Shown here one piece after another: positions 3,793-28,933 of a DNA stretch of 64,000 bases. Every line of letters starts with the position of its first letter. Position 1 is the stretch's first letter. The position numbers and the translations under genes were made by a program. This DNA is from Moniliella sp. 'wahieum' (lineage: Eukaryota): NCBI GenBank assembly GCA_003971905.1, contig RSEE01000048.1:248001-312000 (forward strand), given 5' to 3'. The notes beneath the pieces are model-generated. The model ran no database searches. It worked only from the letters and a program-made list of their open reading frames with translations, and was not told the origin of the DNA.

Positions 3793-3816
3793 ACGTTCAA
3801 CGTTCAACGTTCAACC
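3793..3816. repeat. (TCAACGT)n heptad array upstream of ATG18
   Basis: acgt tcaacgt tcaacgt tcaacc. Confidence 0.85.
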
Positions 3817-4024
3817 TCCATCCCGCTGCTATTGCGGCAATCTGCCCCTCCCCCCGCCACCGCCTCCACCTCCCCTCCCCCTCACCACCACCGCCACCGC
3901 TACCGTGGACGAGTGTCTGCTTCCTCGTGCCTCTCCCTACCGAGCAGAGTCCCAATCTCCCCGCCCTCCGCTCTTCTCTTCTCGCGCTTATCTTCGCCTC
4001 TCCCCGCCCGCCCCCCCACTCACC

Positions 4025-5532
4025 ATGTCGCGTCTTTTGGGCGCCGGGACGCACAAGTCCTCCTCCTCGCTCCTGTCCGTGTCGTTCAACCAGGATGCAA
4101 GTTGTCTCTCTGTTGGAACGCGCAAGGGGTATTCCATCTGGAACACGGAGCCCCATGGCCGTGTGTTCAGCAAGAATGTCGGGCCCACCGGCATTGTGGA
4201 GATGCTGTTTTGTACCTCTCTTGTTGCCCTCGTCGGCACAGGCGAGCCAGCCTCGGCCAGCGCTGCCACGGCTGCCGGTGCGACGGGCCGGCAAGGTGTT
4301 GCGTCGCCTAGAAAGGTGCAGGTGGTCAACTCGAACCGCCAATCTACCATCTGTGAATTGCTCTTTCCCAGCACTGTACTGGGGGTCAAGCTCAACCGCA
4401 AACGGCTCGTTGTACTCCTGGAGGAGGAGATCTATATTATGACATTAGCAACATGAAGTTGCTTCATACGATCGAAACGAGCCCCAACCCCCAAGGTGTG
4501 TTCTTACTGCCCTGATCTTAACTTTAATCTGGCTTGCGATGAAGCGCTGACGACTTGTTGTTGTTTGTACCTTTGCCTTCAGCCATCTGTGCCCTGTCGG
4601 CCAGCTCCAATCCTTGTTACCTTGTTTTCCCCTCGCCTGTCCCTAGTCCCACCTCACCGCTTCCCGGCTCGTCGCAGAACGCAGCGGGGGCAAATGGTCA
4701 GGGGGGCTACAATATGCCGGGTGATATTATGATCTTTGATCTGCTCAACCTATCCATGATCAACATCATCCAGGCGCACAAGGCTCCGATTGCCGCGTTG
4801 GCCTTGAACGCCAATGGCACTCTGCTCGCCACTGCCAGTGAAAAGGGCACGATCATTCGCGTCTTCAGCATCCCGTCCGCGACCAAGCTGTGGCAATTCC
4901 GACGCGGTTCCTACCCGGCGCGCATCTACTCGCTTTCGTTCAATGCCACCTCCACCTTGCTCTCTTGCTCGTCCGATTCCGACACGGTCCACATTTTCCG
5001 CTTGGCACCCACCTATGGTGAGCCCGAGGAGCGACAGACGGCCAAGCTGGGCACGGTGGTCGCTGCGCGCAATGCGGCCTTGTCCGCCGCGGCCGGGCGC
5101 AGGTACGTTGGGCACGACTGGCAACGGGAGCAACAGTCCTGCCGTGTCGTTGGAGGATGACGAATCGGAGGCAGGCGCCGGGTTTGACGACCCGTGTCGG
5201 TGGCCAAGCGGGGGAATGGGGGTGGGTTTAAAGGCCTGATCAAACGCCAGTCGCGCGCCTTGGGCCGGAACGTGGCTGGCAGTGTGGGCGGGTTGCTGCC
5301 CAACACGTTTTCCGATCTGTGGGAGGTGCAGCGTGACTTTGCCCACCTCAAACTGCCTACGGCCGGGGTGAGTAGCATTGTGGCCATCTCCTCGGCCACG
5401 CCGACGGTGATGGTGGTGACCTCAGAGGGCTGCATTTACACCTACTCGATTGACCTCGAACAGGGGGGGGAGTGTGTGTTGATGAAACAGTACTCGTTGC
5501 TGGACTACAATGACGATGCCGAGGAGCGGTAA
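4025..5532 (+). CDS. ATG18: Autophagy PROPPIN WD40 protein Atg18
   Basis: [62 protein letters not shown]...[15 protein letters not shown], phosphoinositide-binding FRRG motif, RDFAHLKLP...[13 protein letters not shown]. Intron about 4496-4582; indels near 4441 and 5100-5195. Confidence 0.95.
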
Positions 5533-5660: not shown

Positions 5661-6207
5661 CGGTGTGTGTGTGCGGCAACTTGTGCACCGTGTGCGTTGG
5701 GGGTGGACAGCGGGCTACGAGGGCAGGTCGTCGGGCACACGCTGCTTCGCTATGGATACACGTTTCACCTCTTTTGTGGACCGTAAGGGGGGAGGGGGAA
5801 GGAATGAAGAGTTGCTTGATCAAGAGAACCGGCGAGGCTGGACAGGCATTGATAAGAGGGAGGGGAGGTGTGGCTGATTGTGGGATGCTGGTCGGCTGGG
5901 GTACCCGGTGCCAGAGCAGGAGATGGCGTGTTGGTCGATGGTTGCGCCCACCTGTTTTGGTTTGAAACTCCGGCAGGCGGCCAGGGGCGCCACCACCGAT
6001 TGCTAGTTGCTGTGCGCCGAGCAAGAGGGCCGAGGGATGGGTTGGGCTAGCGAATGCTTTCGCTTCGCTTCGCTTCGCTCCCTGCGCGCTCGCTCCTCTG
6101 GCGTCGTCGTCCTGGCAGTGGGTCCCCCTTGGGTGCTGATTGGGATCACCCATGGCCACAGCACATCATGCACCATGCCCAGTCCCCCTCGGTCGATAAA
6201 CCCCGCG

Positions 6208-6396
6208 TCGCGCGTCACGCGTCACGCGTCACGCCGCCCGCGCACCCATGTGGGACACGCCGCCCGCCCCTCGTTTTGCGCACTGGGAATCAGGCACTAG
6301 GCAGGCGCTGGAAGCTTGACAGCCCGCCGCATTCAACGTTCAAACGTTCAATGTTCAACTTGAAAATTCAACATTCAATATTCAACCTCAATATTG
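6208..6396. repeat. Heptad arrays upstream of the bZIP gene: (TCACGCG)n and a mixed TCA-NNNN array
   Basis: TCA at 6215/6222/6229; TCA/TGA at 6333, 6340, 6348, 6355, 6361, 6368, 6375, 6382, 6388. Confidence 0.8.
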
Positions 6397-6993
6397 CACG
6401 TGCAACCAATCTTCCGCCACGATCTGGGGGGCCAGCTGCTCCCAGCGGGCGAGGAGCGGCAGGGGCAGCACGTGGCATGGCGCCAGTGGGCTGCACGCAT
6501 CCGCCGCTGGTGTCGTCATCGTCGTGCATGCGCCAGAAGACGTGCACGCCAGGCCGCAGGTGGCGCGCCTCCCCGCAGGCACAGCGGCAGCCAGCCGCCG
6601 CCACGGGCCCCGAAGCGGGCGGCGCGGGGACAGCGCAGGGCCAGTGTCGCGCGGGGGCACAACGTCATCGCATGCGCCCCGAAGCTCGAGGGCGGACGCT
6701 GCGGACAGAAGGCAGGCAGGCGGCCAGCACGCACACGAGAGCGCGTGGTGTGTGATGCTGGTGCATGATGCAATGCAGCTGGCAGGGCGCGCACGCCCCC
6801 CAGGCACCACGCCAGCCAGCCAGCCCACCGCACCCTGGCAGTGGGCGGCAGAGCAGGCGCAGTGTGCTCCCGTGCGCGCACCCGCGCAGCCGACGTCATT
6901 GCTCCTTCGTCAGCGTCATCGACGCCGCCGCCTGGCTACGTACCCGCCCCGCCACCAACACCTCCACCACGCTCCCGCAGCACACGCATCGCC

Positions 6994-9054
6994 ATGGGTG
7001 TGTTTCTCTGCCCCCCCCCCCCGTGTTCCCGTCCGCTGACTCCTCCCCTCTCGCCCACCACCCGCTCCCGCGTGCGCTGTGTCCATGTCTGCGTCCCCCC
7101 CCCCGCCCCCGCCCCGCCCCCGCCCCCGCGCCTCCCCCAGCCTCGACCGACACCCCCCACGCGTCGCGCCTCGAACTCGAGCCCAATCCCTTCGAGGTCT
7201 CCTTCAAGCCCGCCTCCCGCCCCTCCCCCTCCCCCCAGCCCCTCCCGCTCCCTCCCACGGCCAGCCGCGCCGTCGCCCAAAACCACTCGCCCTGCCGCCT
7301 CCACCGCGCCACCTGCCTCCCCTCCTTCCAAGCCGCGTCCCACCTCCGACCACCCCGCCCCCGACACGTCCCCGCGCCCACACTCCGCCCCGCACCCGCA
7401 GGCGACCCGCCAAGCAGCTGCTGATCCTGAGCAGCCACAACCATCCTCTCATTCCCCCGTTCAGCCCGACCGCCAGCCCGCTACCCCGGCCCGTGGCAAG
7501 GGCGCCAACCCCGAGCCCGTCTCGGGCGGTGGCTCGGGAGCCAGTTCGGGCAGCGGCAGCGCGTCAGCTTCTGCCACAGGGTCCAGTGCTGCCAAGGCTT
7601 TGCCTGGAATCACTTCTCTCACCTCCCCGTCGGACGGAAGCAACCCTTTCAATTGGGTTACCTCGCTCCGTGATGGTCCGCTGAGTCCGGCGATGCTGGG
7701 TGCTCCCTCGTGTCCCAGCAAGGCTTTGACGTGTCGGCGTTCCGCACGGGCTTGACCCCGGACCTGTCCAACTTCAAGACGGGCCTCACTCCGCTTGGAT
7801 CCGGGGTGAGCATGCCTCCCCCAGTCCCAACACGGCCGCCTTCCTCGCCGTCGTCAACTCCAACAGCGCCGCCCACGTTCCCACAGGCACCGTGTCTGCG
7901 TCGGGCATGCTTGCCATACTGCGCCCCCGTCGCAGACGGGCGTGCCCGCCACCCTGACACCCAACACGATCAACGCCATCACCCAGGCGAGCAACTCGAT
8001 GCACAACAGCAGTGCCCACCCTACCGTAGCCCCCGCCCCATCGACGGAGGGATCGGCCGACTACTTTTCCGGCCGTGGTTCGGCCGCGTCGGCGACAGGC
8101 GAGCGTCCTGGATCGCGGCTGCGCAACTCGCTTGTACCCCCAGTTGTCACCGAGCCCGGACAGCAGCCCGCACCAGCTGCTGCTTCCCCCTCGCGCCCCG
8201 CGTCGCATGGTGGCGTTCCTGCGTCCGACCCCAACGTCGCCCACTCGGCCGCTTCGGGACTGTATTTGCTAAGCCAAGCGCACCATGAACTGACCAAGCG
8301 CGAGGGCAATACGGCCGCGGCCCAAGCTGCCGCCCACGCACTTCAATCGGTTCCGTACCCGTCTGCGCCGGAGACAGGCGGGAAACCCACTGGTCGCGCG
8401 GGGAGCAAGCGTACCAAGTCGACCGTTTCCGCGGAAGAAGGTGGGCAGAGACCAGTCCTGCATCTGCAGCTCGTGGGCGGGGCCGCGCTCGTCCCGCCGG
8501 TGGACGGAAGAAGGCTCGTGGGGACGCCAAGCCTGCCCCGCCTCCCGTCTCGGCGGCGGAGGAGGAGAGCGAGGACGATGCGCCTGGGTGCGCCCGAGGG
8601 CGCGACGGAAGAAGAGAAGCGCAAGAACTTTTTGGAGCGCAACCGTCAGGCGGCACTCAAGTGCCGCCAACGTAAGAAGGCCTGGCTGCAATCGCTCCAG
8701 CAAACGGTCGAAGGCTTACGCGGGGGAAAACGAGACGCTAAATCGACCGTGGAGATTTTACAGCAAGAAAGTGCGTATTTACGTGCGCAGCTGATTCCCA
8801 CTGCTGGTCCCGGTCCAGCCTCCCAGCCTCCGCCTTCCAACCCTTCGGCCCCTCCCGTTGCGCCTGCCCCAGCTGGCCTAACAGGCCCACCCTACGTCGG
8901 CGCCATGGCCAGGCCTTCCTTCCCGCCCCGATCCATGCCGGCCCACCCTGGCGCCGGGGCGGACTATGCCTATAACCCTATGCCTCCGCCGCCCGCTCCG
9001 AGCGGATTTGGGCAGCCCATGCCGCCGGTGAATGCGAAACGGATTGATGTGTAA
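6994..9054 (+). CDS. atf1: ATF/CREB-family bZIP transcription factor (Atf1/Sko1 type)
   Basis: Aft1_OSA motif SRLELEPNPFEVSF, Aft1_HRA SLRDGPLSPAML, Aft1_HRR RTGLTP..KTGLTPLGSG, bZIP basic region EEKRKNFLERNRQAALKCRQRKKAWL. 4-nt first coding exon ATGG, intron about 6998-7140. Several indels. Confidence 0.9.
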
Positions 9055-9699
9055 GCAGGCTGGGGGTGGGCGGGCAGCACGCTGCCTGTCTTTGCCTGCG
9101 CCCGGTGGCGCTTGCTTGCCGTCGCGGTCGCGATTGCGGTTGCGGTTGCGGGTTGCTCGTCATTGACATGGTTGAGAGATTGAGTCCCTTCCTGGTCGTT
9201 GGTATCGCTCATCTTGGTTTTCTTTTGGTTTGGTCACCTGCTCCGTTTTCCCTTTGGTGCGTTTGTGCGTTTCCTCCCCTGTCTTTCCTCCTTGCCCCCC
9301 ACCACCGTCGCGTGACGATTTCGCCCCCCCCCCCTGCCCCCTTCGTCTGTCCCTCTGCCTCTACCTCGGCGCCGTACCCCGCACTCATTTTCTGCCCCTG
9401 TCTGCCCTCGTGTCGATAACCTGTCCGTCTACCAGTGGTCACCCCTCTTCGTGCATGGAACCTCTGTACCGTTTTGCCCTTCTTTCCCCTTGCCTTCCCC
9501 TTTGCCGTCGGTGGACGCCCCATGGCAAGCCACTCCTGCCCCCCTGATCCATAGTAGCAGTAGCATAGTAGCATTTTTTTCTTGCCCCTCTCTCTCCTTC
9601 TCTTCGGGGAAAGGGGCGCAAGAGACAGACCCAAAAGCCCAGCCCGGGAGACGCATCCCCCCATTCCGAACAAAGGAACGGGAGCAGGACACTCTGCCC

Positions 9700-12600
9700 T
9701 GCTCTTTCTCCGGTCAGCCACTCGCTCCGCATGCTCATGCACCTGCTGGTGCTGCGCATGCGCGCGCGCCCGAGCGCGCTCCCGCTCTTCTTGCCTCCGC
9801 TGCATTTTCCTTGAGCGTCAGGGGGCGGCCCGCCATCGCAGTCGGTGCCGCAGTCCGTGGCCGCATCGGGGCCGCTCCCCCATCCGCATCGGCCGCATCC
9901 CGTCGGGGTCGCGGTCGAGGGCGGACTGGGCGTCGAGGCAGCTTCGGGACCCGCTGGAGCCAATGCTGCCCCTGCTCCTGCCCCGGCCTCGGCACCTGCA
10001 CCTGCACCTGACGGCGTCCCGACCGGACCCGGACCCTCACCCGACGGCGAAGGGGGCCCGGTCGGCCGGTCGGTCGCAGTGGGGGAAGTGGGAGCGGGGG
10101 CGGGGGCGGGGGGGGCGTCGGCACCGCAGGCGGTTGATCGTCGGCGCTCGGCGACGCGCGTTGAGTGTCGCCTATCGACCGCGATCCCGAGCCGAGCCCG
10201 ACCGCGCGCGCGCGCGCGGCGAGAGCGTTAAGGGGCTTCCGGGGCTCGTGGGCGCCGAGAGGGTGTGGGATAGCTCGGGGCTGCGCAGCGGAGGCCGAGA
10301 GAGTAGGCGGGTGCGACGCGAGGGCGACGGGGACGGCGTGCGCGGGCGGGGCGAGGGCGAAGCGCTAGGTGTGTGCGGAGGAAAGGCACCCGGGGGGCGA
10401 AGCCGAAGCCGAATGCGAAGGTGAAGGCGAAGTGGGCGAGGCCGCAGGCAGGGGCGCGGGCGATGCTGCGTCTTGTGCTGCGTCCCGTGCTGGACCGGAC
10501 CCACTCGGGCTGCCAGGTCTGGCGGTGGTCGCACCTGGCGCTGGCGCTGGGGCCGGGGCCACAGGGAGCGACCGTTCGTCCTGATCTACTGCTGTGACCG
10601 AGGGTTCCGCCTCTCCTTTGTCCAGCTCAACGGGGACCGGTTCGTCTGGCATTGGCCTCTCCTTTTCAGCTTGCTCCTTCTCGGCTTGCGCCTTTTCGGC
10701 TTGCTCCCTATCGGCTTGCTCCTTTGGGCTTGCTCCTTCTCGGCTTGCGCCTTTCGGCTTGCTCCCTATCGGCTTGCTCCTTTTGGGCTTGCTCCTTCTC
10801 GGCTTGCGCCTTTCGGCTTGCGCCTTTTCGGCTTGCTCCCTATCGGCTTGCTCCTTTTGGGCTTGCTCCTTCTCGGCTTGCTCCTTCTCGGCTTGCTCCT
10901 TCTCGGCTCGTTCCTTCGCAAGTTGCTCTTGCTCCAAACGTTCTTGTTCTAAACGCTCTTGTTCCAAACGCTCTTCTCCAAACGATCCCGCTCGGCCTGA
11001 TCTCGTTCAAGTCGTTCCATCTGCAAGCGGCCACGCTCCTTGCGCTCCTGTTCTTCCCGCTCCTTTTCCAAACGGAGCTGTTCAAGTCGGGCTTGTTCAC
11101 GGGCAGCTTGGATCCTCCGCTCCTCTTCCGCCCTCTGCTCAGCTTGGATCCGTTCCTGTTCGGCCTTGGCTTGGGCTTCCAAACGCTCCTGCTCGGCCTT
11201 TTGCTCAGCGGCAAGCCGTTGCTCTTCCGCCCTTCTCTCAGCCTCAATACGTTCCTCTTCGCTTTCCTCTCCGCCTCAATGCGCTCGGCTTCGCGTTGCC
11301 GAGCCTCTTCTTCCCTCCGGGCACGTTCCTGAGCTTCCTGTTCTTGTCGCCTTTGTTCCCGTTGCACCGCTTCGTGCCATACATACCTTGACCTGAGCCT
11401 GGATCGTGTAAGTGCTTGGCCAGCCTGCGTTTCGGCCTCCTGGAGCGCGTCGACCCAACTGGGGCCATCGCCAGCCAAAGGGAAGATGGCACTATACATC
11501 TTCCACAACCGCGGTGCCGAGGAGAGGCACCAGATTCGGACGAGGTGCGTGGCCAGGAGCGTGGTCACGGTTCCAGCAGGGGAGTGGGATTGGGTGGGTG
11601 GCCAAGATGCGCGGCCAGGGAACGGGACAGTGCATTCTTTCCCTCGCTTGACAAGCGGACCTGGGAAGACCCGCCCGAATCGAATCCAGAGCGAGGCGCA
11701 GAGCGTGTTCGAGCGCGGCGCGCGTGCCAGCAAACGTGCTGGTGGCGCATACGTGCCCAACACTTCCAACGCCTCCAAGACCGCATTGTGGTGCGCCGCC
11801 AACGGCGACTCGGCCAACGGCGCCAACGCCTCTTCTGCATCCGAAAGTGGCGGAAGCTCGCCCTGCTGCCACAATGGCGCAAGCCAGCTGGGCAACGCTT
11901 GCGCCTGCGCCACGTCCGTTTCCAGTCGTCGCTGGGCAGTTGTGAGTAACGTTTGGAAGAGCTTGCGCGGAGCTTGGGCCAGCGAGCCGGCTGCAATGCG
12001 AGGCAGAGGGTCGGCGCCGAGCGGGCGGAGCGGGACAGCAGCAAAACGGACGTGACGATGCAAGTCGGCCAAGAAGCCAGCGACTTCGAGCGCGGGACCG
12101 CAGGGTCGGGTGCGGCGAGGGCGGAACGGACGAGCGCCTTGACGTCCACCTCGACCCGATGCGCCACGTCGTTCGACACCACCTCCCCCAACGAGGAGAG
12201 AATGGCGCGCGAATGCACCCGTTCCGGTTCCGGGCCGTGTTCGAGGAAGAGGGAAAGGCCAAGCCGGAGCGCATTGGCACTGCTTTCGCGAAACGTGTCG
12301 ATGTACGCCCCGCACGCCGCTGCGCGGCCCGAGAGCGTCGAGTCGAGCAACGGCAATGCTTCCCACTTGGCCCGCAGCGCTGCATATTGCGTGCGGGAAT
12401 ACGCCAGACACAGCGCCGGCAGCGGCAATGAAGACTGCGAAGTGAATCGGCCAGCTGCGCCGCGCCGGGCGCCGGTGCATGTCCATCCACCGCCTCGGCC
12501 AACGCTTGGGTCGTGCTGCCCAACTGCGAGAGGGTGTGCAGCGCGCTGCGCGCACGCGCCAAGTAGGGCTAGGGCCCGTGATATGATGTACCAGCTGATC

Positions 12601-13371
12601 CTGTACTTCGCGCAGCGTCGCCACCACGTTGCCCGTCAGCGCCCGCAGCACCGCCGCTCCCACCACGCGATCCTGGTCCCCGCTGTCCTCACGGGGTGGA
12701 GCGCCTGCAGGCGGGGCGGAGGCCGTGGCGGGAGCGGTGGCAGCGAGCAGCTGGCCAGGTGGTGCGTCAGGCGCAGCGCCACATCCACCCGGCCCTGGTT
12801 CGCAGCCAGTCTACTACTAGCGCCGGAAGCTCGAGCAAGGGAGCGGCCTGGGCATCGGTGGCCACTGCCAGCTGGGCCAGCTGGCTGCGCTGGGAGATGG
12901 CCTCGGCCACAGGCGCACCAAATGCGGCGGCATGGGAGCGCAGGCGCGGGACCCGCGACGAAGCGTCCTGCACTGCTTCCTCGACTGCCGCCGCTGCGGT
13001 GGGCGCTGCCGAACGTGCCGCAGCAACGGCCGAGAAGGCACGGGCGTGGCGCACACACGCGGCGGCAGCGTGTGCCCGGGCCGCCGCCGACGCACTGGCC
13101 AGCGCGGCCGGGGACTCGATCGTGGCGGACAGCGGGCGGGTGGTGAGGGCAGCGAGGAAGGCGAGCGGCTGGCGGTCGGGCTCGGGGTGGGTCGGATGCG
13201 GACAGGGCCTGGGCCTGGCCAGGGATGGAGGGGTTAGCGGGCGCAGGAGGGGGGCTGGAGACGACGCACGATCTGGGCATAGGCAGCGGCATGGGCGGTG
13301 TCGTGGCGAGCGGCGTCGCTGGCTTCGCGCGCGATGAGGACAGCCAGCGGCGGGGCCTCGGCCACGGACAT
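9700..13371 (-). CDS. COG8: Conserved oligomeric Golgi complex subunit 8 (Dor1-like) with a long coiled-coil/repeat C-terminal extension; 3' end approximate
   Basis: ATG in accgccATG context at 13371, intron about 13270-13219. Dor1-like segments PLLELPALVVDW, GRVDVALRLTHHL, LCLAYSRTQY, AYIDTFRES, PLGADPLP, PLAAHHNAVLEALEVL across shifted frames, followed by an E/R/Q-rich coil and EKEQA repeats. Confidence 0.7.
10665..10980 (-). repeat. Coding 15-bp minisatellite encoding EKEQA/DREQA/EKAQA/QKEQA and LEQER pentapeptides
   Basis: Plus-strand unit of the form ggcttgctccttctc repeated roughly 15-20 times with higher-order blocks. Confidence 0.9.
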
Positions 13372-13628
13372 GGCGGTGGTGGGGGCGGTGGGGGCGGGCG
13401 AAGGCACGCGGGTGGCGCACGGAAGCGTCCAAGTGGGTGGTAGATCTGCCGATGGGATTGAACTTCAATGTTCAGCTGCACATGTGATGTCGCGGTGACG
13501 CCCAACGGAGATTGCAGGCCCAGCTGTGACATGGATGTGACGCCGCCAGCCGCGTGCCGCACTGCCCACGCCGTGCCTTCTCGCTTCGGCCTGCCCTGCC
13601 GCTCGCCACCCACACCACACCCACACCC

Positions 13629-15717
13629 ATGCCCGCCTCCACCGCCGCGTCTTCCCCCCCGCCCGCCCCGCCGCCAACCGGCTGCTCCCACCCCGCGCCC
13701 TCCGCCGCTCCCCCGACCATCTGCGTCGCTTCCGCGCCGGCCTGCGCTGGGGCCGCATGATCCGCGCCGGCCAGGTCATGATGGACGAGGACGACGAGCC
13801 GCCCGAGGGCGTGGATCGCAGCAGGCTTCTTCCCTACCCCGAGTGGCACCTGCACCGTCTCCCTCCACCGCCCCTTTCTCTGCCTCGAGTGTGCCCACGC
13901 CGCCTGCCACATCCCCGCCCGCCCGCCGGACCGGGCATCGACGACGAGAGCCACATGGCCCAGCATCTCAAGCAGGCCGACCATCCGCTTGCCGTCGAGA
14001 TCCATTCCGGCACCGTGCTGTGTGCCGCGTGCGACGACCTGGTATTCGATGCCCACCTCCACCACATTGTCCAGCAGGAACAACGCCGCGTTACCCACCC
14101 CACGCGCGGACGCAAACGTCACATCCCGCCTGATTGGGACGACAAGGAGGGTGAGTGGCGCAACCGGTCCGGTGTGAGATCCCCGCTGCTGACCACGATC
14201 TTGTGATACCAGATCTCAAACGCAGCCTGAGTGGAAACTAGTAGTGCCGTGCAAAGGTGAGTGGGCTGTCGGCTGGGCTGCGCAGCGTAGGGGAAACCGA
14301 CTGACTCTGAATTGTCTGCAGCGCCCCGAGGACTGCGCAACATGGGCGCAACGTGCTATATGAACGTCGTCCTCCAATCATTTTCCACAACCCCCTCCTG
14401 CGCAACTTTTTCCTTCGGATCGGCACAACAGCTCCTTGTGCACCAAGCGAGAAAATTGTTTGGCATGCGAGTTGGACTTGCTTTTCAACGAGGTATGGGT
14501 GTCTCCCCCACCCCGCTCCGTCTCCCCCCGTACCCCCTTGTCTGACCTTCGTGCTGCCATGTTTAGTTTTTTACAGGCGATGCCAACCTCACTGCGTTTG
14601 GACCGACCAACCTGCTCTTTACCCTCTGGCTTGCCCGCGAGAGCAACGAGATTGCCTCGACGGGGCAGCACGACCCATGAGTGTTTATCAGCATGGCCAA
14701 CGCCATGCACAGTGCGCTGACCCAGTCCAACTTGGGTGCTCCTCCTTGACGCAAACCGAGGAGAACGGTCGACATCGATCGTCGGCGCTGCCTTCGTGGC
14801 CATGGGAAGCCTTTTACCCTTCCCACGCGACCGGGGGCAGATGTCCCTGTGCGATTCACCGCACGTTTAGCGGAACGATTCAGTCGGACGTGACGTGTCA
14901 GCAATGTGGCCGGTGGAACTCGACCAAGACCCGTTTTTGGACATTAGCCTCGACCTCAAACCGCCCAAGCCGGCCGGCGCGTCCGCGTCGGCGCAACCCC
15001 CAAACCCGAATTGACTGATCGAGTGCCTCACACGGTACACCCGTGCCGAGTCGCTGGATGTGGCGGGATACAGTTGCCCCAACTGTGGGTCGGCGCAAGC
15101 GACCAAGCAGCTCAGCTTCCTACGGTTCCCCCCAGTCTTGTGCTTGCAACTCAAAGTGCGTGCCCCCCTCTTCCGCTTCCTTCTCCCCCTTCTCTTCTTC
15201 TTCTTCTTCTTGCTTTCCTTCCTGTGCGTGCGGACCTCTAGGATTGTATACTAACTGCGCCAATTGGACTGGATAGCGTTTCGAGCACAGTTCCTCGGCC
15301 AGCAAGATTGACAATCCCATCCGCTACCCGCTCGAGCTGGACGTGCGCGAGTTTGCCACCAGCATGGTCCAAGGCGAGGCGGACAAGACGTTGCAAGACC
15401 CCGAGTACGTTTTCTTTTGACTTGTTTGCTTTTGGCCTTTTGCTTCTTGCTTGCTCTTACTGGATCTCTTTCTTTCCGTTCGTGGTTGCTAACCTGTATG
15501 GACAGGGCGTACATCTACGATCTGTTTACCTCGGTGGTGCATGAGGGCACGCTTACCACTGGACTACACCAACTACTCCAAGTACCGGGATCAGTGGTAC
15601 TTTTATGACGATGACAAGGTCCGTCCCGTCCCGGCACGCCAAGCATTGAATGGCAACGCGTACCAACTGTGCTACCGCCGTCGCGGGTTGCACAACTTGA
15701 TCGCTACCGATGCCTAG
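13629..15717 (+). CDS. UBP8: Ubiquitin-specific protease with ZnF-UBP domain (Ubp8/USP22 type, SAGA DUB module)
   Basis: ZnF-UBP-like HMAQHLKQADHPLAVEIHSGTVLCAACDDLVFD, Cys box PRGLRNMGATCYMNVVLQS, IHRTFSGTIQSDVTCQQC, PPVLCLQLK|RFEH, His box VVHEGTL, WYFYDDDKV, NAYQLCY. Multiple introns; start approximate. Confidence 0.85.
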
Positions 15718-15949: not shown

Positions 15950-18900
15950 CTACTTGAGTCCCAACTTGGCCCACGCATCGTCGAGCCCGTTGTCTGTCCT
16001 TGTTCTGGCTCGCATGCTCCAGCGTTCCATCGGCCTGGGTGGTCCTCCGCCGCATCGGCGGCAAAGTCAGTTCCCGCCACACGTGGCCCAGCGAGGCCAC
16101 ATCCTCAATCACCCCATCCACCCCCACCACCCGTCCACCCCGTCGGGCGCGTCGCGCGGCAAGGCGGGCCGGTAGGCATCGCCGACAAACCCAATCCGGT
16201 ACAACGTGCCGTCTTGGCACCCACAATCAAACTTTCGTGGTCCACCACCATGGCCAACGGGCGCGTGGCCGGCGCCTGCAGCGCTGCTTGGTGCGCCGCC
16301 CACGCTCCGGTCAGCGGGACAAACTGGCCGGTCGACCACGCCTCGGTCGCCGTCGCCTCGCCCTCCAAATCGGCCTCGGCACGCTTAGGTTCGTCGGAGC
16401 GGGCGTGGTACGTGCTGACATACAACCTCCGGTCCGAGCCCGAGTGGGAACTGAACGTGCTGCACACAATGCGTTGCTTGGCCGCGTCCACGGCGCCCGT
16501 CGCCATATCGGGCGCATGCAGTACCTCGACAATCCGAGGCGCAGCAGCCAAGTTGGGCGCATACCGCATCGCTCCCGTATACACACCTTGGGTCGTAACG
16601 GCCGGCTGGGACTCAACACCAGTCGGAAACAGTGCGGCGCCGGCGCCGACAAGTCGCCGCTCACGCTCCCCTCCTGCTTGCGCGCAAGCCGAGCCAACGG
16701 CGGCGCGCCCTTTCCCAACGCGCGCTGGGCCGCGGTGGCGCACTCTGGCTCGGCGTCCCGGCGGCCGATGGGGACCCGGTCCCGAAGGCGACCGAGTCGA
16801 CGTCCGGGACAGCGAACGGGGAGCGTGGCCTGGGTCGAAGCTGTGCTGGTCAGCGAGTCGGAGCGGGACCGCGTTGGATCGGTGGCGCCGGTGGGAGTAC
16901 GGGTGGGGGTGGTAGGTGTGCCAGGGATGGAAGGTGGCAAGGAGGCCCGGCTGGGCGTGCGGAGGGGAGTGCTCCGGCTTGGGGCGCGCGGCGGGGGCAG
17001 ACTGGGGCGGGAAGAGGGTTCGCGGCGAGTTCGCAGCGCGCTGGCCGCGGCCGAAGCCGAGCGGGCCGAGGCAAGCTTGCGGATCTCCGAGGGCGGGATG
17101 TAGGGCTCGACGGGGACAAAATGGTCTTGCCACTGCAAGTGGACCACGTCTGCTTGGATGCGACGGTGATCGTCTTGGCGCTGGCATGGAACCATTGGAG
17201 CATGGCCTTGGCCCCCAACGTCGACGGTCCGCCCAACTTGTGCAGGTCAAACTGCTGAATCATGCAGGCTTGCGGGATGGAAAGGTGCGGATCATGCCGT
17301 CGACTGTCACGGCCACAATCTTGGTCTGGTCCACAATCGACACGCCCCAAACTCACGTTGCTCTGCTGTCCAAACCGAACAATCTTGCTCCCCGAGCGCC
17401 AATCCCAAACGACAATGGCCTTGTCCTGTCCGCAGCTGATGAGGTAGTCCTGGCTGAGGGCGACATGGCGAATGCCCTTGTTGTGGCCACTGAGCGTCTG
17501 CAGCAGCTCCCACGTCTTCATGTCCCACACCATCACCCGCCCCGAGTCATACAGGCCGGCACAGAGGATGTTGTGGTCGGGCAAAAAGTCGAGGCAGCTG
17601 ATGGCCTTGGCCTGGAGCACTTTGGTGCACTTGCCCGTGCGCAGATCCCACACGCGCACCGTCTCGTCGTACGAGCCCGTGACGAGCGTGGTGCGGCCCT
17701 TGATCTTGATGCTTGTCACATAGCCCGTGTGGCCGGGGAAAAACGTAGGGTCTGGGCCAGGCCTTGGGCCCAGTTGCGTTCGCGCCAAAACAGGCCTTTG
17801 ACCAACCCTTCCCACCCGGCCGGGTCGGCGGCGGGCGACGGGGCACGGGGTCGCCCCAGGTCAAGCGGCGCGCATGGGACGCCCACAGCGCCGGCGCGCG
17901 CGACAGCTGGTCCACTTGGTGCACCTGGCGGCGCAGCGCAGCAGGGTGGGCACGTCGAGGTAGCGGAGGATGCGGAGGCTGATGGCGTCAGCGAGCTGGG
18001 TGAGGCAGTCGCGGGTGCGGCGCAGGCGCTGGTCCAGTTGGGTGGCCAGCACGGTGAGCTCGGCGGTGGAGCAGGCGTCGAAGAGGAGCGCGGCGAGCTG
18101 GAGGCGCTCGGCGTGGGACAGCTGGGCGAAGCGGCGCTGGATCTGGGCCGTGTGTGCGCCCACGCCGCCGGGCGCCAGCGCCTCGTCGGGCAGGAGCGGC
18201 GGCGGGGCGGCGGCGGCCTGCTGCGGCGCATCCAGCGCGGCGGCCGCAGCGGCACTGGCGGGCGGCTGGTACAGAATGCACGAGCGCCACCCAGCGCCTT
18301 GGCGGCATGCAGGTTGCCCCGCACATCGTCCACCACGTAGCACTGCGCCCCTGCGCCAGCCTGCACCGCCGCCTGCGCCTGCATGCATGCGCGCCGCAGC
18401 CGCAGCCCACACAGTCAGCCGAGCCAAGCAGCCACGAGCCAGGAGAGAGCGACGTACCGCCTGGTAGAACGCCCGGTCGGGCTTGCATGCGCCGCGGCCT
18501 GCGCATAGTCGCAGTACACACACGCCTCCACCCACCGCAGCAGGCCGAGGTGGTGCAGGCGGCGCCGGCGAGCGTCCTGTACGAGCTGGTCAGCGCCACG
18601 ACGCGGCACTGGGTGCGGTCCAGGCGCGCGAGCTGGTGCAGCAGCACGGGGTCCGGCTGCTGCACGTTGCCCAGCGGCAGCGACGCCTCGCACGCCTGCT
18701 CGAACGCCAGCGCGTCGGCGCCCCACTGCTCTGCCCAGCTGCGCACCGCGCGCCCGCCGAGCAGCTGTACGCCGCCTGCGCCTCCTCTGCTGCACGGGGC
18801 GGCAGGCCGAGCGCAAGCAGGTGGCGCAGGACGGCGTGGCTGCGCAGGCGCGCCAGGCGCGGCGTGCTGCACAGCGCACTGTCAAGGTCCACAAACACCA

Positions 18901-19096
18901 CTGCCCGTGCATCGTCCGGCGCGCCCGGGCCGCCATGGTACCACTCCACGCCCACCGCCGCGTCGGGGCCGAGGGCGCTTCCACTGCGTGGCGCGGGGCC
19001 AGTGCCACCAGCAGCCGGCTGCGGGCCTACGCTCTTGCGCGCTGTGGAGGGCGCTGTGCTGCTGCGCGGCTTCGATGGCCGCTCCTGCACCACCAT
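15950..19096 (-). CDS. Fusion protein: SDT1-like HAD (pyrimidine 5'-nucleotidase-type) domain + F-box + WD40 repeats
   Basis: HAD motifs VVFVDLD (18889), ALTSS, CDY..CKP (18484), CYVVDD (18330), then GWRSCILY running in frame into the F-box DCLTQLADAISLRILRYLDVPTL. WD40 repeats GHTGYVTSIK...LVTGSYDETVRVWD and GHNKGIRHV...LISCGQDKAIVVWD. Intron 18457-18379. 3' end approximate. Confidence 0.8.
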
Positions 19097-20175
19097 CGCG
19101 CCCAGAACCAACAGAGCTCAGAACCAGACGCAGCCACGAGCCACGGCGGATGGAAGCGGGAAAGAGTGTTAGGAAGATTAGATTGTCAGTGCACCATCGC
19201 TACTGTCACTCGCCCGCAGCAGCACAACGGTGCCCTCAACGTCTCAACCTCAACACGCAGCATCCGGCCACTGTTCCTGCGCCTGCTGCCCGCGCAATGC
19301 ACAATGGCCGTGTGGAGCAGCCACCGCACCATCACCCATTGCCCATCACCCATTCCACACGGCCATCCCTGCTGCACCAATCCATTCCGCATTCCGCCCC
19401 ACTGCCCCGCTTATTTACACCGACCCCACCCAGTCCTCACGCTACGCTCACCCCACAGTAGATACGCACACCAACCCGCGCCCCTGTCATGTGCCAAACG
19501 CCATGTGCAGCGCAGGAAGGATAGAGTGCACCGACCGACTGCCCCACCACCGTACCCGACTCTTTTCCCTTGCGCATCCACTCTTCTCACCATCACCACA
19601 CTTGAGCTGCGGGGAAATGCTTGCGCCATATGATGCGTTGATCCGCAGCGCTGGGGCCGGGTTGGAAACCCTCCATCACCAGAGATACAAGAAGAAAGAC
19701 GCTTGATGGCCCCAGAGGCGGCAATTGACATGACTCGGCCATCTGTGGGGGCTGAGCGTAAGAGTGCTCACCGGTCACCGTGCCACACACAGGATAGAGC
19801 TCCCGGACGGCCAACACGAGCGGGTCGTCCCAGCATTGTGGGAGGTCTTTTTGGGGGTTAGCGACATCGACAGTGAGGATCCAAAACAGAACCTGTGGCA
19901 CCGCAGCCTCGAACATGTTCGGAGTCTTTGGTGCCAGCCCAGCCACTTTTCACTCTCGTAATATGCCCTCGGCGCCGCGTCCTGCCAAATGAGGAGACCG
20001 CCCCAACAACCGCTGCGTTCACTTGACCACCGTCGCCTCGAATGGCCCTTTACCTCCATCATCGCTGGCTTTGGCTGCTGTTCACCCCGCTCGCTGTTGG
20101 TCCTTGACCTCTCTTTGTGCTTCTCCTCTGTTTCTCGGCAGAGACGAGCAGGACAGACGATCGACCACAAAAGGT

Positions 20176-20475: not shown

Positions 20476-22487
20476 ATGGAGACGGACGAGCAGCTGTACC
20501 CCATCGCCGTCCTGATTGACGAGCTCAAGAGCGAGGATGTGAACCTGCGCCTCAACGCCATCCGCCGCCTTGGCACCATTGCCCTCGCCCTCGGCCCCGA
20601 GCGCGCACGCGGCGAACTCATCCCTTTCCTACAGGACAGTCTTGACGATGAGGATGAGGTTCTCATGGCCCTCGCCGAGGAGCTCAGTGTTTCCTTTGTT
20701 GATTACATTGGTGGGCCTGCGTACGCGCACCTGCTGCTCCCGCCGCTCGAGAACCTGGCCGCTGTCGAGGAGGCCGTCGTCCGCGACAAGGCGACCGAAT
20801 CGATCGCCAAGATCTCGACCGTGCTTAGCACGCAACAGATCGAGGAGTACTACATGGAACTTCTCCGTCGCCTTGCCACCGGCGACTGGTTCACCTCCCG
20901 CACCTCGGCCACCGCCCTCTTCACCCCGATTTACCCCAAGGTCAGCCTCCAGACCCAAGCTGAGCTCCGCGAGAAATTTGCCAAGCTCTGTGCCGATGAG
21001 ACGCCCATGGTGCGGCGTGCGGCGGCCCGCGATCTTGCTGTATGTTGATCCACCCGATTTCCGCGCCCGAAGGATGCGACTGACCTAGGACTGCACTTTT
21101 CAGGCGTTTGTAAAGGTGCTGGGCAAGGAGTTGGTGGTGAGCGATGCCATCCCGCTTTATCGCCGGTTGTCGTCAGACGACCAAGATAGCGTACGCCTGT
21201 TGACAGTGGAGGACTTGGTCGCCATCTCGGAGGAGCTCGCGCCGGAGGAAGTAGCGGGCTATATGCTCCCCTCGATCCGCGCTTCGGTTGGAGACAAGAG
21301 CTGGCGGGTTCGGTACATGGCGGCTGACAATTTTGTCAAATTGGCCACGGCGGTGGGCCAAGAGATTGTCCGGAGCGAGCTGGTGGTTGCGTTTGTACAT
21401 CTGCTTCAAGATAACGAGGCCGAAGTGCGCACGGCGGCAACAAGCCAGCTTCCCGGGTTTTGCAAACTGATCAATGATCCTGCCATCGTGCTGTCTCCCA
21501 TTCTCCGCGCCATTCGCGACCTTTCCAACGACGCTAGTCAACACGTTCGGGCTGTTTTGGCCTTGCAGATCTCGGGGTTGGCACCGCTGCTGGGCAAAGA
21601 GGCGACGACTGAGCACCTCCTGCCTATCTTTTTGAGCTTGCTCAAGGATGACTTTCCGGATGTGCGGCTTCACATCATTTCCAAGTTGGACCAAGTTAAT
21701 CAGGGTATGTGTTTTTGTGGACTGCATTCGCTTGATGGTGGACTGATACAATTCTGGTGACAGTGATCGGTATTGACTCGCTCTCGCAGTCGCTTCTGCC
21801 TGCGATTGTTGAGCTGGCCGAGGACAAGCAGTGGCGTGTACGGGAGGCGATTATTAACTACATCCCGCTCCTCGCCCAGCAGCTCGGCAAGACCTTCTTT
21901 GACGAGCAGTTGTCGGTGCTGTGCATGACCTGGCTGGGGGATACAGTTTTCTCCATTCGGGAAGCAGCGACGGTCAACCTGCGCAAGTTGACCGAGACGT
22001 TTGGGGTGGAGTGGGCCCAACAAGCCATCCTGCCCAAAGTGTTGGAGCTGGGCAAGCACCCCAACTACCTCTACCGCATGACGACCATCTTTGCCATCTC
22101 CACCATGGCGCCGGCGCTGGATCGGCCGACGATCGCCAAGACGGTCCTGCCCACCGTTTCGGCCCTGATGGCCGACCCAATTCCCAACATCCGGTTCAAT
22201 GTGGCCAAGGCACTCGAAGTGCTTGCCCATCTGCTGCTGGGCACACGCGACCCAGACCCGGCCCCGGGCGCTGGGCCGCCGCCGAAGGCGAGGCCAAGAC
22301 CCACGACTCGCCGCCCGCCGCTGCCCCCCTCACCCCGGCCGACCAACAATTGGCGCACGAGGCGCTGCAGACGACCATCCTGCCCGGCCTGGCCAAATTG
22401 AAGGACGACCCAGATGCAGATGTGCGGTACTTTGCCCAAAAGGCGTTCACCTCCTTGCCCGCCTCGGTGCTGGCAGGGCATGTGTGA
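20476..22487 (+). CDS. TPD3: Protein phosphatase 2A scaffold/regulatory subunit A (HEAT repeats)
   Basis: [99 protein letters not shown]. Introns about 21040-21103 and 21705-21763. Confidence 0.97.
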
Positions 22488-26781: not shown

Positions 26782-28167
26782 TTACTTGTCGTTGGCAACG
26801 GGCGCGACGGTAGGGTCTTTGCCATGCAGCTCGCCGAGCAAGCCCTCCATTTCCCACGCGCCAGCCCACCAGCGGATGCCAGCCTTGAGGTTGCCCTCGG
26901 TGCGGATCCGCTTTTCCAGGCCACGGCCCGAACGGACAAAGGCCACGTCCTTGGCACCCAGGCGCAAGACGGGGCAGTAGTCATTGCCACCGTCGCCAAC
27001 ATAGATGATGCGTTCAAACGCCTGGCGGCCACCGTGGCGGGCAATAAAGGCATCCAATTCTTCGCCCTTGCACATGTTGGCCGAGCAGCCCACCTTGCAG
27101 CCGTGGTCCCGGCTGCCTGGCTCGCCGGCAGGCGGGATGCGACGTTTGAGCTCCAACAAGCCGTTGGGCAAGAACCGAGCTGGGTTGGTCACAATCTCCT
27201 CAAAGATTGCCGGGCCCTCGGGCGGTTGCAACTTGCGTGCCGACAGGACGGTATCAATGTACACTGTGTTGGAGTTGGACAAGAGGAAGAAGGTGGTGTC
27301 CACCTCGGTGTCGGCCTTGAGTGCCTTGACACCGCGCACCATACCGGGGTGGAAGGGGAGCGCGCGCATTGCCTCCTTGATCTCGTCGGGCGTCTTGCCT
27401 TCGGCATAGAGTTCACGCAGCATCATCGCACACAGGTCGGTAAATTGCATGTGCGGCATGAGGCTCTTCATCCTTCTCCGCAGATGCGGAGCCAAATACT
27501 CGTGCACCCACCGGTCCGTGTCCTGGTCCGCCAACGACCAGTCAAAGTCAAACACAATCAGTTGGCGCTTGACCGGCACGAGCGGCGCCTTGCCAGCCAG
27601 CTGGCTCTCTTGCGACTGGCGTGCAATGATCGCGCGCAGCGCACGCACCACCAGCGAGTGATCTTCGCCCTGGGCCAAGCCCGACACGGCAATCGCAACC
27701 GGCACACCAGGCGCAGCCGCCACGTACACCGGCACGCCGCCGCCATGGGCCGCGTAAATCGACGTGTCCAGCCCAGCATCCAACGACTTGCCCTTGGCCA
27801 CGCGCTCGCGACCGACCAAGTAGGAAGCATGGCCAAAGCGCCGCACCGTCGCCGCCTTGCGACGCACCCAGTCCCAATTGTCACTGCTCGTCGCCGTGGG
27901 CCAACCAGCGGCGGACGCGTACAGGTCCTGGCCCGAAACAGACTGGATGCTGACCACCATGCCCGTCAGCGGCTGGCCGTACTGCGCCGCCTCGACCTGG
28001 GACGCAGGCACGCCCTTGGGGTAGTACTGGCGCAGGTAGTCCTCCCGAATCGTCTGGCCCAGCTGAAGCGCAACGTCGGCGTCAAAGCGGGTGAGGACGA
28101 GTTCACGCTCCTCGTTCTGCAGCGTCGACACGAGGTCGTGGTCGGACAGCAGGGCGTACTCGGCCAT
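26782..28167 (-). CDS. Fusion protein: GlcG/HbpS-like (YBR137W/UPF0303) domain + PHOSPHO1/PHOSPHO2-type HAD phosphatase, 461 aa, intronless
   Basis: N-domain RFDADVALQLG...DNWDWVRRKAATVRRFGHASY...YAAHGGGVPV...IAVSGLAQGEDH. C-domain LIVFDFDWSLADQDTD, LLSNSNTVYI, IVTNPA, CSANMCKGEEL, IIYVGDGGNDYCP. Single uninterrupted ORF. Confidence 0.9.
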   Translation of the reverse strand: MAEYALLSDHDLVSTLQNEERELVLTRFDADVALQLGQTIREDYLRQYYPKGVPASQVEAAQYGQPLTGMVVSIQSVSGQDLYASAAGWPTATSSDNWDWVRRKAATVRRFGHASYLVGRERVAKGKSLDAGLDTSIYAAHGGGVPVYVAAAPGVPVAIAVSGLAQGEDHSLVVRALRAIIARQSQESQLAGKAPLVPVKRQLIVFDFDWSLADQDTDRWVHEYLAPHLRRRMKSLMPHMQFTDLCAMMLRELYAEGKTPDEIKEAMRALPFHPGMVRGVKALKADTEVDTTFFLLSNSNTVYIDTVLSARKLQPPEGPAIFEEIVTNPARFLPNGLLELKRRIPPAGEPGSRDHGCKVGCSANMCKGEELDAFIARHGGRQAFERIIYVGDGGNDYCPVLRLGAKDVAFVRSGRGLEKRIRTEGNLKAGIRWWAGAWEMEGLLGELHGKDPTVAPVANDK

Positions 28168-28933
28168 GGCAAGAGAGCGAGGGAAGGTGGTGGGAGAGAA
28201 GCAGACGAGACGGGCCAGGCGACGTGGGGCTGGGATCGGACGACATGCCACCGCCCGACCCACCTGAGAATGTCCGTCGGCTGGTTCGGACCAGTTTCAG
28301 TTTGCTTGGCTTCCAGCTGCGCGCCTGGGCTCGCCCGCCGCCCTGGAAAAAAAGAAACTCCAGTGCCCACCTGGGGCCACGTGCCGGCCTGCTTAGGTAA
28401 GCCCTCGCGTCTTTCTCCGTCCCCACCGTACCCACTTGCAACTTCCACCCCCCCCCCTCTGGGCCACCGAATAGCACAGTGATAACCACAGTGGTTCACA
28501 ACATGATTACTATCACCCGGTTAGTCTTTCGTTGGTCGTAAGTGGACCTGTCGCCCTGGCTTTCCTTTTGTACCGCCGCCGTCCCACCCCACGACAAGGC
28601 AAAAGACTTCAATCTTCAAGCTTGAATCCTGGCTACGACAATCAACCGTCAAGGGGAGCGCTGGGTCAACACACGAGCTCATATGGCCAGCCGGGGAGTG
28701 CCAGCGACACCATTTGGATTAGGAAATGCATATGGGCCAGAAATATGCATAGTAGGGTCAACCATAGTCCCAGCGACTAGACTAGACTAGACAAAGATAT
28801 CCCCCGCGGGTGACAACGTCCCCAAGCCATAGAATTGGCAGGCGAGCACCCGTCATAAACCAAAGCAGGCTCCACAAGCGAGGTAGGAATGAGCTACAGA
28901 GGCTGCAACAAAGCCAAACGAGCCGACGCACGC

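Follow-up and report, generated by a model that had tools for sequence, protein, structure and literature searches.

An F-box/WD40 module probably nested within the SDT1-type HAD domain of a conserved, uncharacterised protein family of Ustilaginomycotina fungi

Architecture and conservation of the HAD/F-box/WD40 gene

The 64-kb stretch of Moniliella sp. 'wahieum' DNA analysed here (contig RSEE01000048.1, positions 248,001 to 312,000; hereafter the window) carries on its minus strand, from 19096 to 15953, a locus that encodes, in colinear order, an SDT1-type HAD nucleotidase, then a helical linker followed by an F-box, a WD40 propeller interrupted by a low-complexity insert and, at the C-terminus, a short tail. 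This locus is probably a real two-exon gene of an Ustilaginomycotina fungus, belonging to a conserved and uncharacterised family in which an F-box/WD40 module is nested in a loop of the SDT1-type HAD domain. According to sequence comparisons and structural models, the HAD fold of these proteins is predicted to be assembled from the N-terminal ~200 residues and the last ~25-50 residues of the polypeptide. What appears to be new is the combination, probably by domain insertion, of an F-box/WD40 receptor of the Skp1-Cullin-F-box (SCF) kind with an SDT1 nucleotidase, both kinds of protein being known.

To locate the gene, the minus strand was mapped in all three frames between 19200 and 15700. Every coordinate that an earlier reading of the window, made from its letters alone (the sequence-only reading), had given for motifs and tail was verified on this map, which also shows the stop codon (Table 1). 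The same reading had GWRSCILY run in frame into the F-box, and the last HAD strand, the helical linker and most of the F-box do form one open frame (f2, 18289-17912, 126 codons) with no stop. The four HAD motifs that it described are all present on the minus strand, with the caveat that they are spread over three different frames, and the need for indel polishing that it implied is reflected in the at least 14 frame breaks found in the gene. The single intron has a form typical of fungi, and its site coincides with an open reading frame (ORF) break in relatives too: P0126, an exon-1 ORF with the same intron site and canonical HAD motifs, reads through past ...AYYLA, and P0001 and P0003 begin directly downstream.

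A family search with a 130-residue WD40 query gave 94 proteins with E <= 1e-10 among 539 candidates. The HAD/F-box/WD40 architecture proposed for the locus was found in other fungi as well, since 32 of these 94 relatives, by our own count, carry a HAD (PF13419 and/or PF00702), an F-box and WD40 repeats. The named members come from Ustilago, Sporisorium, Pseudozyma, Moesziomyces, Testicularia, Thecaphora, Tilletia, Tilletiaria, Meira, Exobasidium, Sympodiomycopsis and Parajaminaea. A taxonomy look-up of three named genera placed all three in Ustilaginomycotina, to which we take the remaining named members to belong. The sole named exception, the 993-residue P0010, carries the label of a fern, Adiantum nelumboides; its HAD motifs and tail are almost identical to those of P0011, and the record probably reflects fungal DNA within a plant assembly. 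Over the WD40 query, the closest matches, ORFs that begin directly after the intron, show 89-95% identity and named members 74-82%, the closest named species being Tilletiaria anomala (82%). P0001 (801 residues), P0003 and P0004 are single ORFs spanning motif IV to tail, and more than 20 named species have gene models about 1000-1400 residues long.

The family includes UMAG_03518 of Ustilago (Mycosarcoma) maydis, which shows the same HAD, F-box, WD40 and tail as its counterparts from S. reilianum and P. hubeiensis. These members have canonical DIDNT, TNAY, CKP and DDS motifs, whereas the HAD of the locus is far more diverged and contains an intron. In addition, HAD-less F-box/WD40 orthologues were found in Wallemia, Calocera, Dacryopinax, Tulasnella, Rhizoctonia/Ceratobasidium and Paraglomus. 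These proteins, some of them automatically named 'pof1', have the same pre-F-box helices, F-box and WD40 (55-62% identity over the 130-residue query), but carry a long N-terminal region, coiled-coil-like by eye, in place of the HAD, and no tail.

Identity and divergence of the HAD domain

The HAD part was compared with a profile of stand-alone SDT1 proteins built independently of the fusion family (111 Agaricomycotina proteins, 248 model positions), using a read-through of the locus with an X placed at each frame break. The domain that the sequence-only reading had assigned to 18900-18270 was recovered with a score of 137.6 bits (E 8.8e-44), the match covering model positions 8-201 of 248, and the best single-frame piece scored 35.6 bits (E 1.2e-12). 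No Pfam match was obtained for the single-frame HAD pieces among the ten single-frame pieces scanned, the domain emerging only when the frames are joined into a chain.

HAD motifs and cap are shared with the stand-alone HAD 5'-nucleotidases Sdt1/Ssm1 of S. cerevisiae (PDB 3nuq, 3onn, 3opx) and Ifn1 of S. pombe. Residues 84-273 of P0028, an Exobasidium orthologue, matched yeast SDT1 3onn with E 1.6e-43. An AlphaFold2 model of P0028, made from a 22-sequence alignment (mean predicted local distance difference test, pLDDT, 67.7; predicted template modelling score, pTM, 0.48), superposed on this structure with a root-mean-square deviation of 1.3 A over 195 columns and a template modelling (TM) score of 0.75 on the target.

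Residues D88, D90, T189, K225, D250 and D251, all catalytic, are invariant in the alignment of the family (22/22 members), as are N91, the Thr-Asn of motif II, the Lys-Pro of motif III and, in motif IV, S252 and N255; T92 is close to invariant. On this evidence the family looks like an active nucleotidase, and we infer that the HAD is Mg-dependent and active in most members. The description of the phosphatase as possibly active in the sequence-only reading is thus fair for the family and less sure for the copy in the window, whose HAD is diverged. For Ifn1, a characterised Sdt1 homologue of S. pombe, PMC13059787 describes Asp11 as the nucleophile and a pair of adjacent Asp residues of which the second, Asp174, is a Mg ligand whose Ala mutant keeps 3% activity; Asp80 is described as binding the ribose hydroxyls and Arg50 (Asn in Sdt1) as tuning base preference.

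The locus retains D88, D90, T189, K225, D250, D251 and N255. Its motif II reads TSSY, H126 of the family is replaced by Gln, and the GLAIRGLV.HH cap segment is largely replaced. At the position of the Sdt1 Asn and Ifn1 Arg50, associated with nucleobase specificity in PMC13059787, the family has His and the locus Gln, as aligned by eye. Several observations weigh against catalysis by this copy. Motif I is DLDSA (18889-18875), with both Asp kept, compared with DIDNT in the family (N-T in 21 of the 22 members, N-C in the other), and the Asp of CDxSLPL (family-invariant D156, the putative counterpart, as aligned by eye, of the ribose-binding Asp80 of Ifn1) is Glu. Family-invariant residues are kept at 37 of 61 positions in the HAD and at 103 of 117 elsewhere (linker plus F-box, 23/26; WD40, 77/88; tail, 3/3), a difference with p 7e-5 in a Fisher test after removal of 4 gap/X positions; the changes, 22 among the 59 scorable HAD residues, lie mostly in the cap. 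In a tree of 84 HAD domains, the end branch of the locus reaches 2.28 substitutions per site, where the median is 0.29. Furthermore, motif IV of two close relatives reads VDGS (P0001) and IDNS (P0004), without the second Asp (D251), although both proteins retain the domain end and the C-terminal tail; P0003 keeps DD.

Catalysis may thus have been lost or altered in the clade of the locus while domain and tail were retained, and it is possible, although we consider it the less probable case, that this clade has retained its HAD as a pseudo-enzyme, which would serve the receptor as a scaffold, either structural or ligand-binding. The missing Asp of P0001 and P0004 matches Asp174 of Ifn1, the Mg ligand (PMC13059787), an equivalence derived from adjacency in the DD pair, and domain and tail persist in the locus in spite of the many altered invariant residues. 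On the other hand, the locus and P0003 keep DD, the locus also keeps both Asp of motif I, the Thr of motif II and the Lys of motif III, and the relatives were compared on their exon-2 parts alone, with residue equivalence deduced from alignment. As a separate observation, the diverged, Ala/Arg-rich HAD sits in one of the GC-richest blocks of the window, and its letter make-up is unlike that of the family.

The F-box/WD40 receptor module

The WD40 repeats of the locus were recognised by Pfam with 76 bits (cut-off 27). The F-box-like fragment at 17983-17906, which is cut by a frame break, scored 19.1 bits (E 0.0012), below the Pfam cut-off of 24.3; orthologues carry F-box PF12937/PF00646. In both the locus and P0001 the F-box starts with LAD and not with the usual LP(D/E) (17983-18004), this Pro being at least 90% conserved in the 22-member alignment. 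Searches with the P0028 model gave as best fold matches the Skp1-bound receptors Fbw7, FBXW11/beta-TrCP and Cdc4 (E 1.8e-17 to 1e-14), and at the sequence level, too, the WD40 part of P0028 best matched receptors of the Fbw7/Cdc4/beta-TrCP type. Like Fbw7, Cdc4 and beta-TrCP (FBXW1A, FBXW11), the family combines an F-box, a helical linker and a WD40 propeller. It differs from them in sequence (13-21% identity), in a long disordered insert in the propeller, whose equivalent in P0028 (677-828) has pLDDT below 50, in the lack of a detected Beta-TrCP_D, and in that the module is anchored at both ends in another domain. Models and sequence together indicate that the nested module looks like an SCF substrate receptor, with an F-box predicted to bind Skp1; the whole protein would then work as an SCF receptor.

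The region preceding the F-box corresponds in the P0028 model to three helices of low confidence (322-364), and the HAD-less orthologues have a homologous helical region at this place. A presumed resemblance of this region to the beta-TrCP D domain was not confirmed: no PF12125 match was found at E<=1 in 17864-18589, nor in the Pfam lists of the 94 relatives, no scan having been focused on the region. No relatives came up when the linker plus F-box piece was used as query in a word-based search.

The C-terminal tail supports a domain insertion

Inspection of the C-termini revealed the tail in six of six HAD-bearing orthologues (P0005, P0006, P0024, P0028, P0037 and P0048), whereas the six HAD-less orthologues inspected all stop no more than about 25 residues after the last WD40 blade (...GTIYVLGFVG...) and have no tail. 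Its consensus, GDA[TV]I.DL..LR.VW.E...P, often followed by ..DHPGR......GLK, occurs in the C-termini of all 22 aligned members. In 51 stand-alone SDT1 sequences, the last core strand (lGW....) is followed by a variable loop of 10 to >100 residues, and most of these proteins end in I..l.eLr.vfPelF; the Tulasnella protein P0096 ends in GVDATITSLHSLRKVWPQFF. The corresponding terminal element of Sdt1 and Ifn1 (I..L.eLr.vWp..F) is homologous to the family tail. The loop that precedes it spans 10 to ~100 residues in stand-alone proteins and ~700 residues, with a complete F-box/WD40 module, in the fusion family.

Profile comparisons bore out the resemblance between the tail and the end of SDT1 proteins that had been noticed in the sequence-only reading. 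The stand-alone SDT1 profile matched each of the 22 fusion proteins twice, in the N-terminal HAD (~4-223) and again at the very C-terminus (mostly model positions 197-247, overall about 185-247), and gave a tail match in none of 16 HAD-less orthologues. A tail profile of 21 sequences aligned with the stand-alone profile at an hhalign probability of 96.1% (E 3e-9, template 234-262 of 282). In turn, the crystallised yeast SDT1 chain 3onn_A (residues 25-256) is matched end to end by the stand-alone profile (E 6e-85), whose terminal element falls on the C-terminus of this chain.

The structural predictions are consistent with these alignments. In the P0028 model, the last core strand (266-270) is followed by the nested module of ~700 residues, a disordered stretch (962-974) and then a strand (977-979) and a helix (982-988), the tail having a pLDDT of about 90 over 981-990. 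The same pattern of strand (205-209), loop, strand (237-239) and helix (242-248) appears in the AlphaFold2 model of the stand-alone P0096 (pLDDT 89.9). Foldseek makes sequential alignments, which cannot place the tail of the full-length P0028 model. We also carried out a complex test in which the P0028 HAD (79-290) was modelled with its tail (955-996) as partner, in three runs and with three controls. The tail was predicted to dock onto the HAD core, the packing that the sequence-only reading had proposed to check, with a median score of 0.89 (runs 0.89, 0.58 and 0.89) against 0.65 for the best control; the mark for docking is reached by 51 of 78 solved complexes and by 2 of 108 mismatched pairs. 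The runs share at least 42% of contacts, with a partner pLDDT of at least 49, and residues 977-995 contact 83, 85, 92-93, 170-183, 247, 249, 256, 260 and 266-274, which correspond to the first, fourth and last core strands.

It has to be noted that some of these results weigh against an insertion. Individual tail matches are weak (i-Evalues 3e-6 to 0.69 in the 22 fusion proteins), and in three close relatives the match to the stand-alone profile is marginal in one (i-E 6.1) and absent in two. The tail of the locus itself gives no match to the stand-alone profile and -1.1 bits with the family profile, while keeping all three family-invariant tail residues. One of the three docking runs scored 0.58 and one control 0.65, and the docking may in part reflect memory, by the model, of solved SDT1 chains that contain the element. 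Since these structures hold the element within one chain, the docking shows likeness to the SDT1 fold, not binding.

These weaknesses are what would be expected to favour an end-to-end fusion of HAD and F-box/WD40, with the tail as an unrelated extension of the receptor. We regard such a fusion as improbable, given that the tail is absent from the HAD-less orthologues, both by inspection and by profile scan, and that the profile-profile match falls exactly on the C-terminal element of stand-alone SDT1. Moreover, the fused HAD would, without the tail, lack an element common to the stand-alone profile and to the yeast crystal chain, and the predicted secondary structure is the same in P0028 and P0096. 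Altogether, four independent lines (co-occurrence, homology, secondary structure and predicted docking) support the domain insertion first proposed in the sequence-only reading, with the receptor module placed in a HAD loop that is naturally permissive to insertions.

Frame breaks and integrity of the gene

The coding sequence of the locus was followed with a family profile (22 full-length relatives, 1151 positions), its matches being chained over the three frames. The resulting path is colinear from 18919 to 16059 (profile positions 130-1130 of 1151) and crosses at least 14 frame breaks where no intron fits, 12 of 14 being -1 shifts; ungapped tblastn with P0001 gave the same frame hops. All 16 coding pieces are free of stop codons, the WD40 blades share 95-98% identity with P0001 (tblastn) and 100 of 114 invariant F-box/WD40 residues are kept. 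A predominance of -1 breaks is what single missing bases leave behind. Further conserved genes of the window are disrupted likewise, namely those for PP2A-A, a protein kinase, a PROPPIN and a ubiquitin hydrolase (UBP). Among 132 ORFs of at least 150 codons outside the locus, the PP2A-A HEAT repeats are found in three, two of them overlapping in different frames; the protein kinase is spread over three ORFs, of which two overlap, and the PROPPIN is split in two. The longest ORF of the whole window has 656 codons. The assembly thus seems to carry many single-base indels, window-wide.

In view of the -1 bias, the stop-free pieces, the conserved blades and the window-wide breakage, we take the frame breaks to be assembly indels and the gene to be probably intact. 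A caveat is that the single intact ORF is our reconstruction. A decaying pseudogene of the family, with frame breaks that are real mutations, would account for so many breaks within about 3 kb and for the strong divergence of the HAD part. We give this little credence, as breaks of predominantly one kind are expected from under-called bases, no piece has acquired a stop codon, blades and invariant residues are conserved, and the neighbouring PP2A-A, kinase, PROPPIN and UBP genes are broken alike in a window with no ORF above 656 codons. That two neighbouring genes, a nucleotidase and an F-box/WD40 protein, were misread as one is very improbable: Agaricomycotina do have separate genes and a gene boundary could lie hidden in the Ala/Pro-rich stretch that follows the HAD, but no stop separates WRSCILY from the F-box, single ORFs of three close relatives and the long gene models of more than 20 named species run across this point, and the HAD-derived tail sits downstream of the WD40.

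Features of the locus and neighbouring genes

The coordinates of the locus and of the broken genes used for comparison are given in Table 1.

Table 1. Parts of the HAD/F-box/WD40 gene and examples of other broken genes in the window
Feature	Positions	Strand	Remarks
Whole coding region	15953..19096	-	Two exons separated by one intron; TAG stop codon at 15955-15953; ATG candidate at 19096, start codon uncertain
HAD core and cap, SDT1-type	18269..18919	-	Frames f2/f1/f0/f2, intron, f0/f2; profile of stand-alone SDT1
HAD motif I, DLD of VFVDLD	18889-18881	-	
HAD motif II, T of LTS	18590-18588	-	
HAD motif III, K of CKP	18484-18482	-	
Intron, 79 nt, phase 0, GTACGT...CTGAC...CAG	18379..18457	-	Between ...AFYQA and AQAAV..., within the HAD domain
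HAD motif IV, DD of CYVVDD	18330-18325	-	
Last HAD core strand, WRSCILY	18289-18269	-	GWRSCILY begins at 18292
Ala/Pro-rich stretch, then helical pre-F-box region (AQIQRRFAQLSHAERLQLAALLFDAC...)	18008..18268	-	Frame of the last HAD strand
F-box (LTQLADAISLRILRYLDVPTLLRCAA...ALW)	17860..18004	-	Cut by a frame break near 17912; covered by the family profile
WD40 blades, block 1	17147..17743	-	Frames f2/f0/f2; family profile 334.8 bits
Blade end, then Ser/Pro/Arg-rich low-complexity insert in the propeller	16641..17146	-	Frame path uncertain at 16812-16640
WD40 blades, block 2, ending ...DGTLYRIGFVGD	16154..16640	-	Frames f0/f2; family profile 121.7 bits
C-terminal tail VGVDGVIEDVASLGHVWRELTLPP, putative displaced terminal strand-helix of the HAD fold	16059..16127	-	Family-level homology and docking
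Tail peptide VIEDVASLGHVWREL	16112-16068	-	Three-frame map
Extreme C-terminus ...DDAWAKLGLK and stop	15953..15997	-	Another frame again; P0001 residues 792-801 map here; family ends in GLK
Broken genes for comparison: PP2A-A HEAT repeats, protein kinase, PROPPIN	21089-21757 / 21736-22398, 54863-56447, 3566-5157	+	

The window is GC-rich eukaryotic DNA, with 52-71% GC per 2 kb and 67-68% across the locus; blocks of 65-71% (6001-14000 and 16001-20000) alternate with blocks of 52-60%. The ubiquitin hydrolase gene (13541-15717, plus strand) is convergent to the HAD/F-box gene and shows a zf-UBP match at 13541-14203, a UCH-like part downstream recognised by eye, and a frame break near HEGTLTTG / YTNYSKY. 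Further away, an unbroken ORF of 504 codons on the minus strand (26785-28296) joins an HbpS-like haem-degrading domain (PF03928, E 1.5e-13) to a Put_Phosphatase domain (PF06888, 168 bits) and is a second, unrelated HAD-type phosphatase fusion in the window. On the plus strand, Aft1_HRA and bZIP_1 matches in adjacent ORFs at 7674-9051 suggest an Atf1-like transcription factor.

Origin of the family and previous knowledge

Tulasnella, Calocera and Dacryopinax possess a stand-alone SDT1 together with a separate HAD-less receptor. Among the best 120 relatives of the Tulasnella stand-alone SDT1, the named ones are Agaricomycotina as far as we recognise them. The simplest history would be a single event in an Ustilaginomycotina ancestor, in which a receptor gene without its N-terminal (coiled-coil) region was inserted into the SDT1 loop. 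The HAD tree allows this scenario and does not prove it; the fused HADs (27 rows of the 84-domain tree) lie on one side of a branch with an SH-aLRT of 56, and this weak monophyly counts against a single insertion.

The architecture exists in public databases as uncharacterised gene models and has apparently never been studied. These models carry automatic names, such as 'related to pyrimidine 5-nucleotidase' in S. reilianum and 'Suppressor of disruption of TFIIS' in P. hubeiensis. Our search, which did not extend to subscription journals or supplements, found no paper on UMAG_03518/um03518 or on the nested architecture. An inventory of F-box proteins of U. maydis lists, in its main text, 16 such proteins, 7 of them with WD40 (PMC7991009); the words 'hydrolase' and 'nucleotidase' are absent from this main text, the supplements being outside the search.

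Proposed function and significance

F-box proteins with an enzyme domain are known, as in the Fbh1 helicase and the KDM2 demethylases, where SCF adaptor and catalysis reside in one polypeptide. The arrangement in these proteins is serial, whereas the family described here would nest the adaptor within the catalytic domain. Sdt1-type enzymes act on small molecules, so that a protein-phosphatase role of the HAD seems unlikely from what is established for these enzymes. As a tentative working model, we propose that the protein is bifunctional, with a nucleotidase for small molecules and an SCF receptor held together physically. In such a protein, nucleotide binding or cap closure could be transmitted through the two junctions to the receptor or, alternatively, the abundance of the enzyme could be tied to the turnover of the F-box protein. 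PMC13059787 reports that overexpressed active Sdt1 or Ifn1 is toxic in yeasts, and tying such an enzyme to an F-box protein could serve as a control.

A more specific proposal, which we put forward as a rather doubtful one, is that the nested HAD is a nucleotide-operated switch for the SCF receptor, purely ligand-binding in the clade of the locus. Cap closure would move the two junctions and gate receptor geometry, dimerisation or stability, and pyrimidine/NMN (nicotinamide mononucleotide) status would be coupled in this way to the degradation of an SCF substrate. If this were true, Rosetta-stone logic would make functional partners of the SDT1 and F-box/WD40 proteins that other basidiomycetes have separately.

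F-box/WD40 receptors and SDT1 nucleotidases are each well understood, and a receptor nested in an enzyme domain is unusual. Since a domain insertion couples two folds mechanically, such an arrangement is an obvious place to look for a ubiquitin ligase controlled by a metabolite. The family is conserved across the subphylum, including the genetically tractable Ustilago maydis, and the idea is therefore directly testable. The gene fusion would link nucleotide and NAD-precursor salvage to an uncharacterised SCF receptor that is encoded by a separate gene in other fungi.

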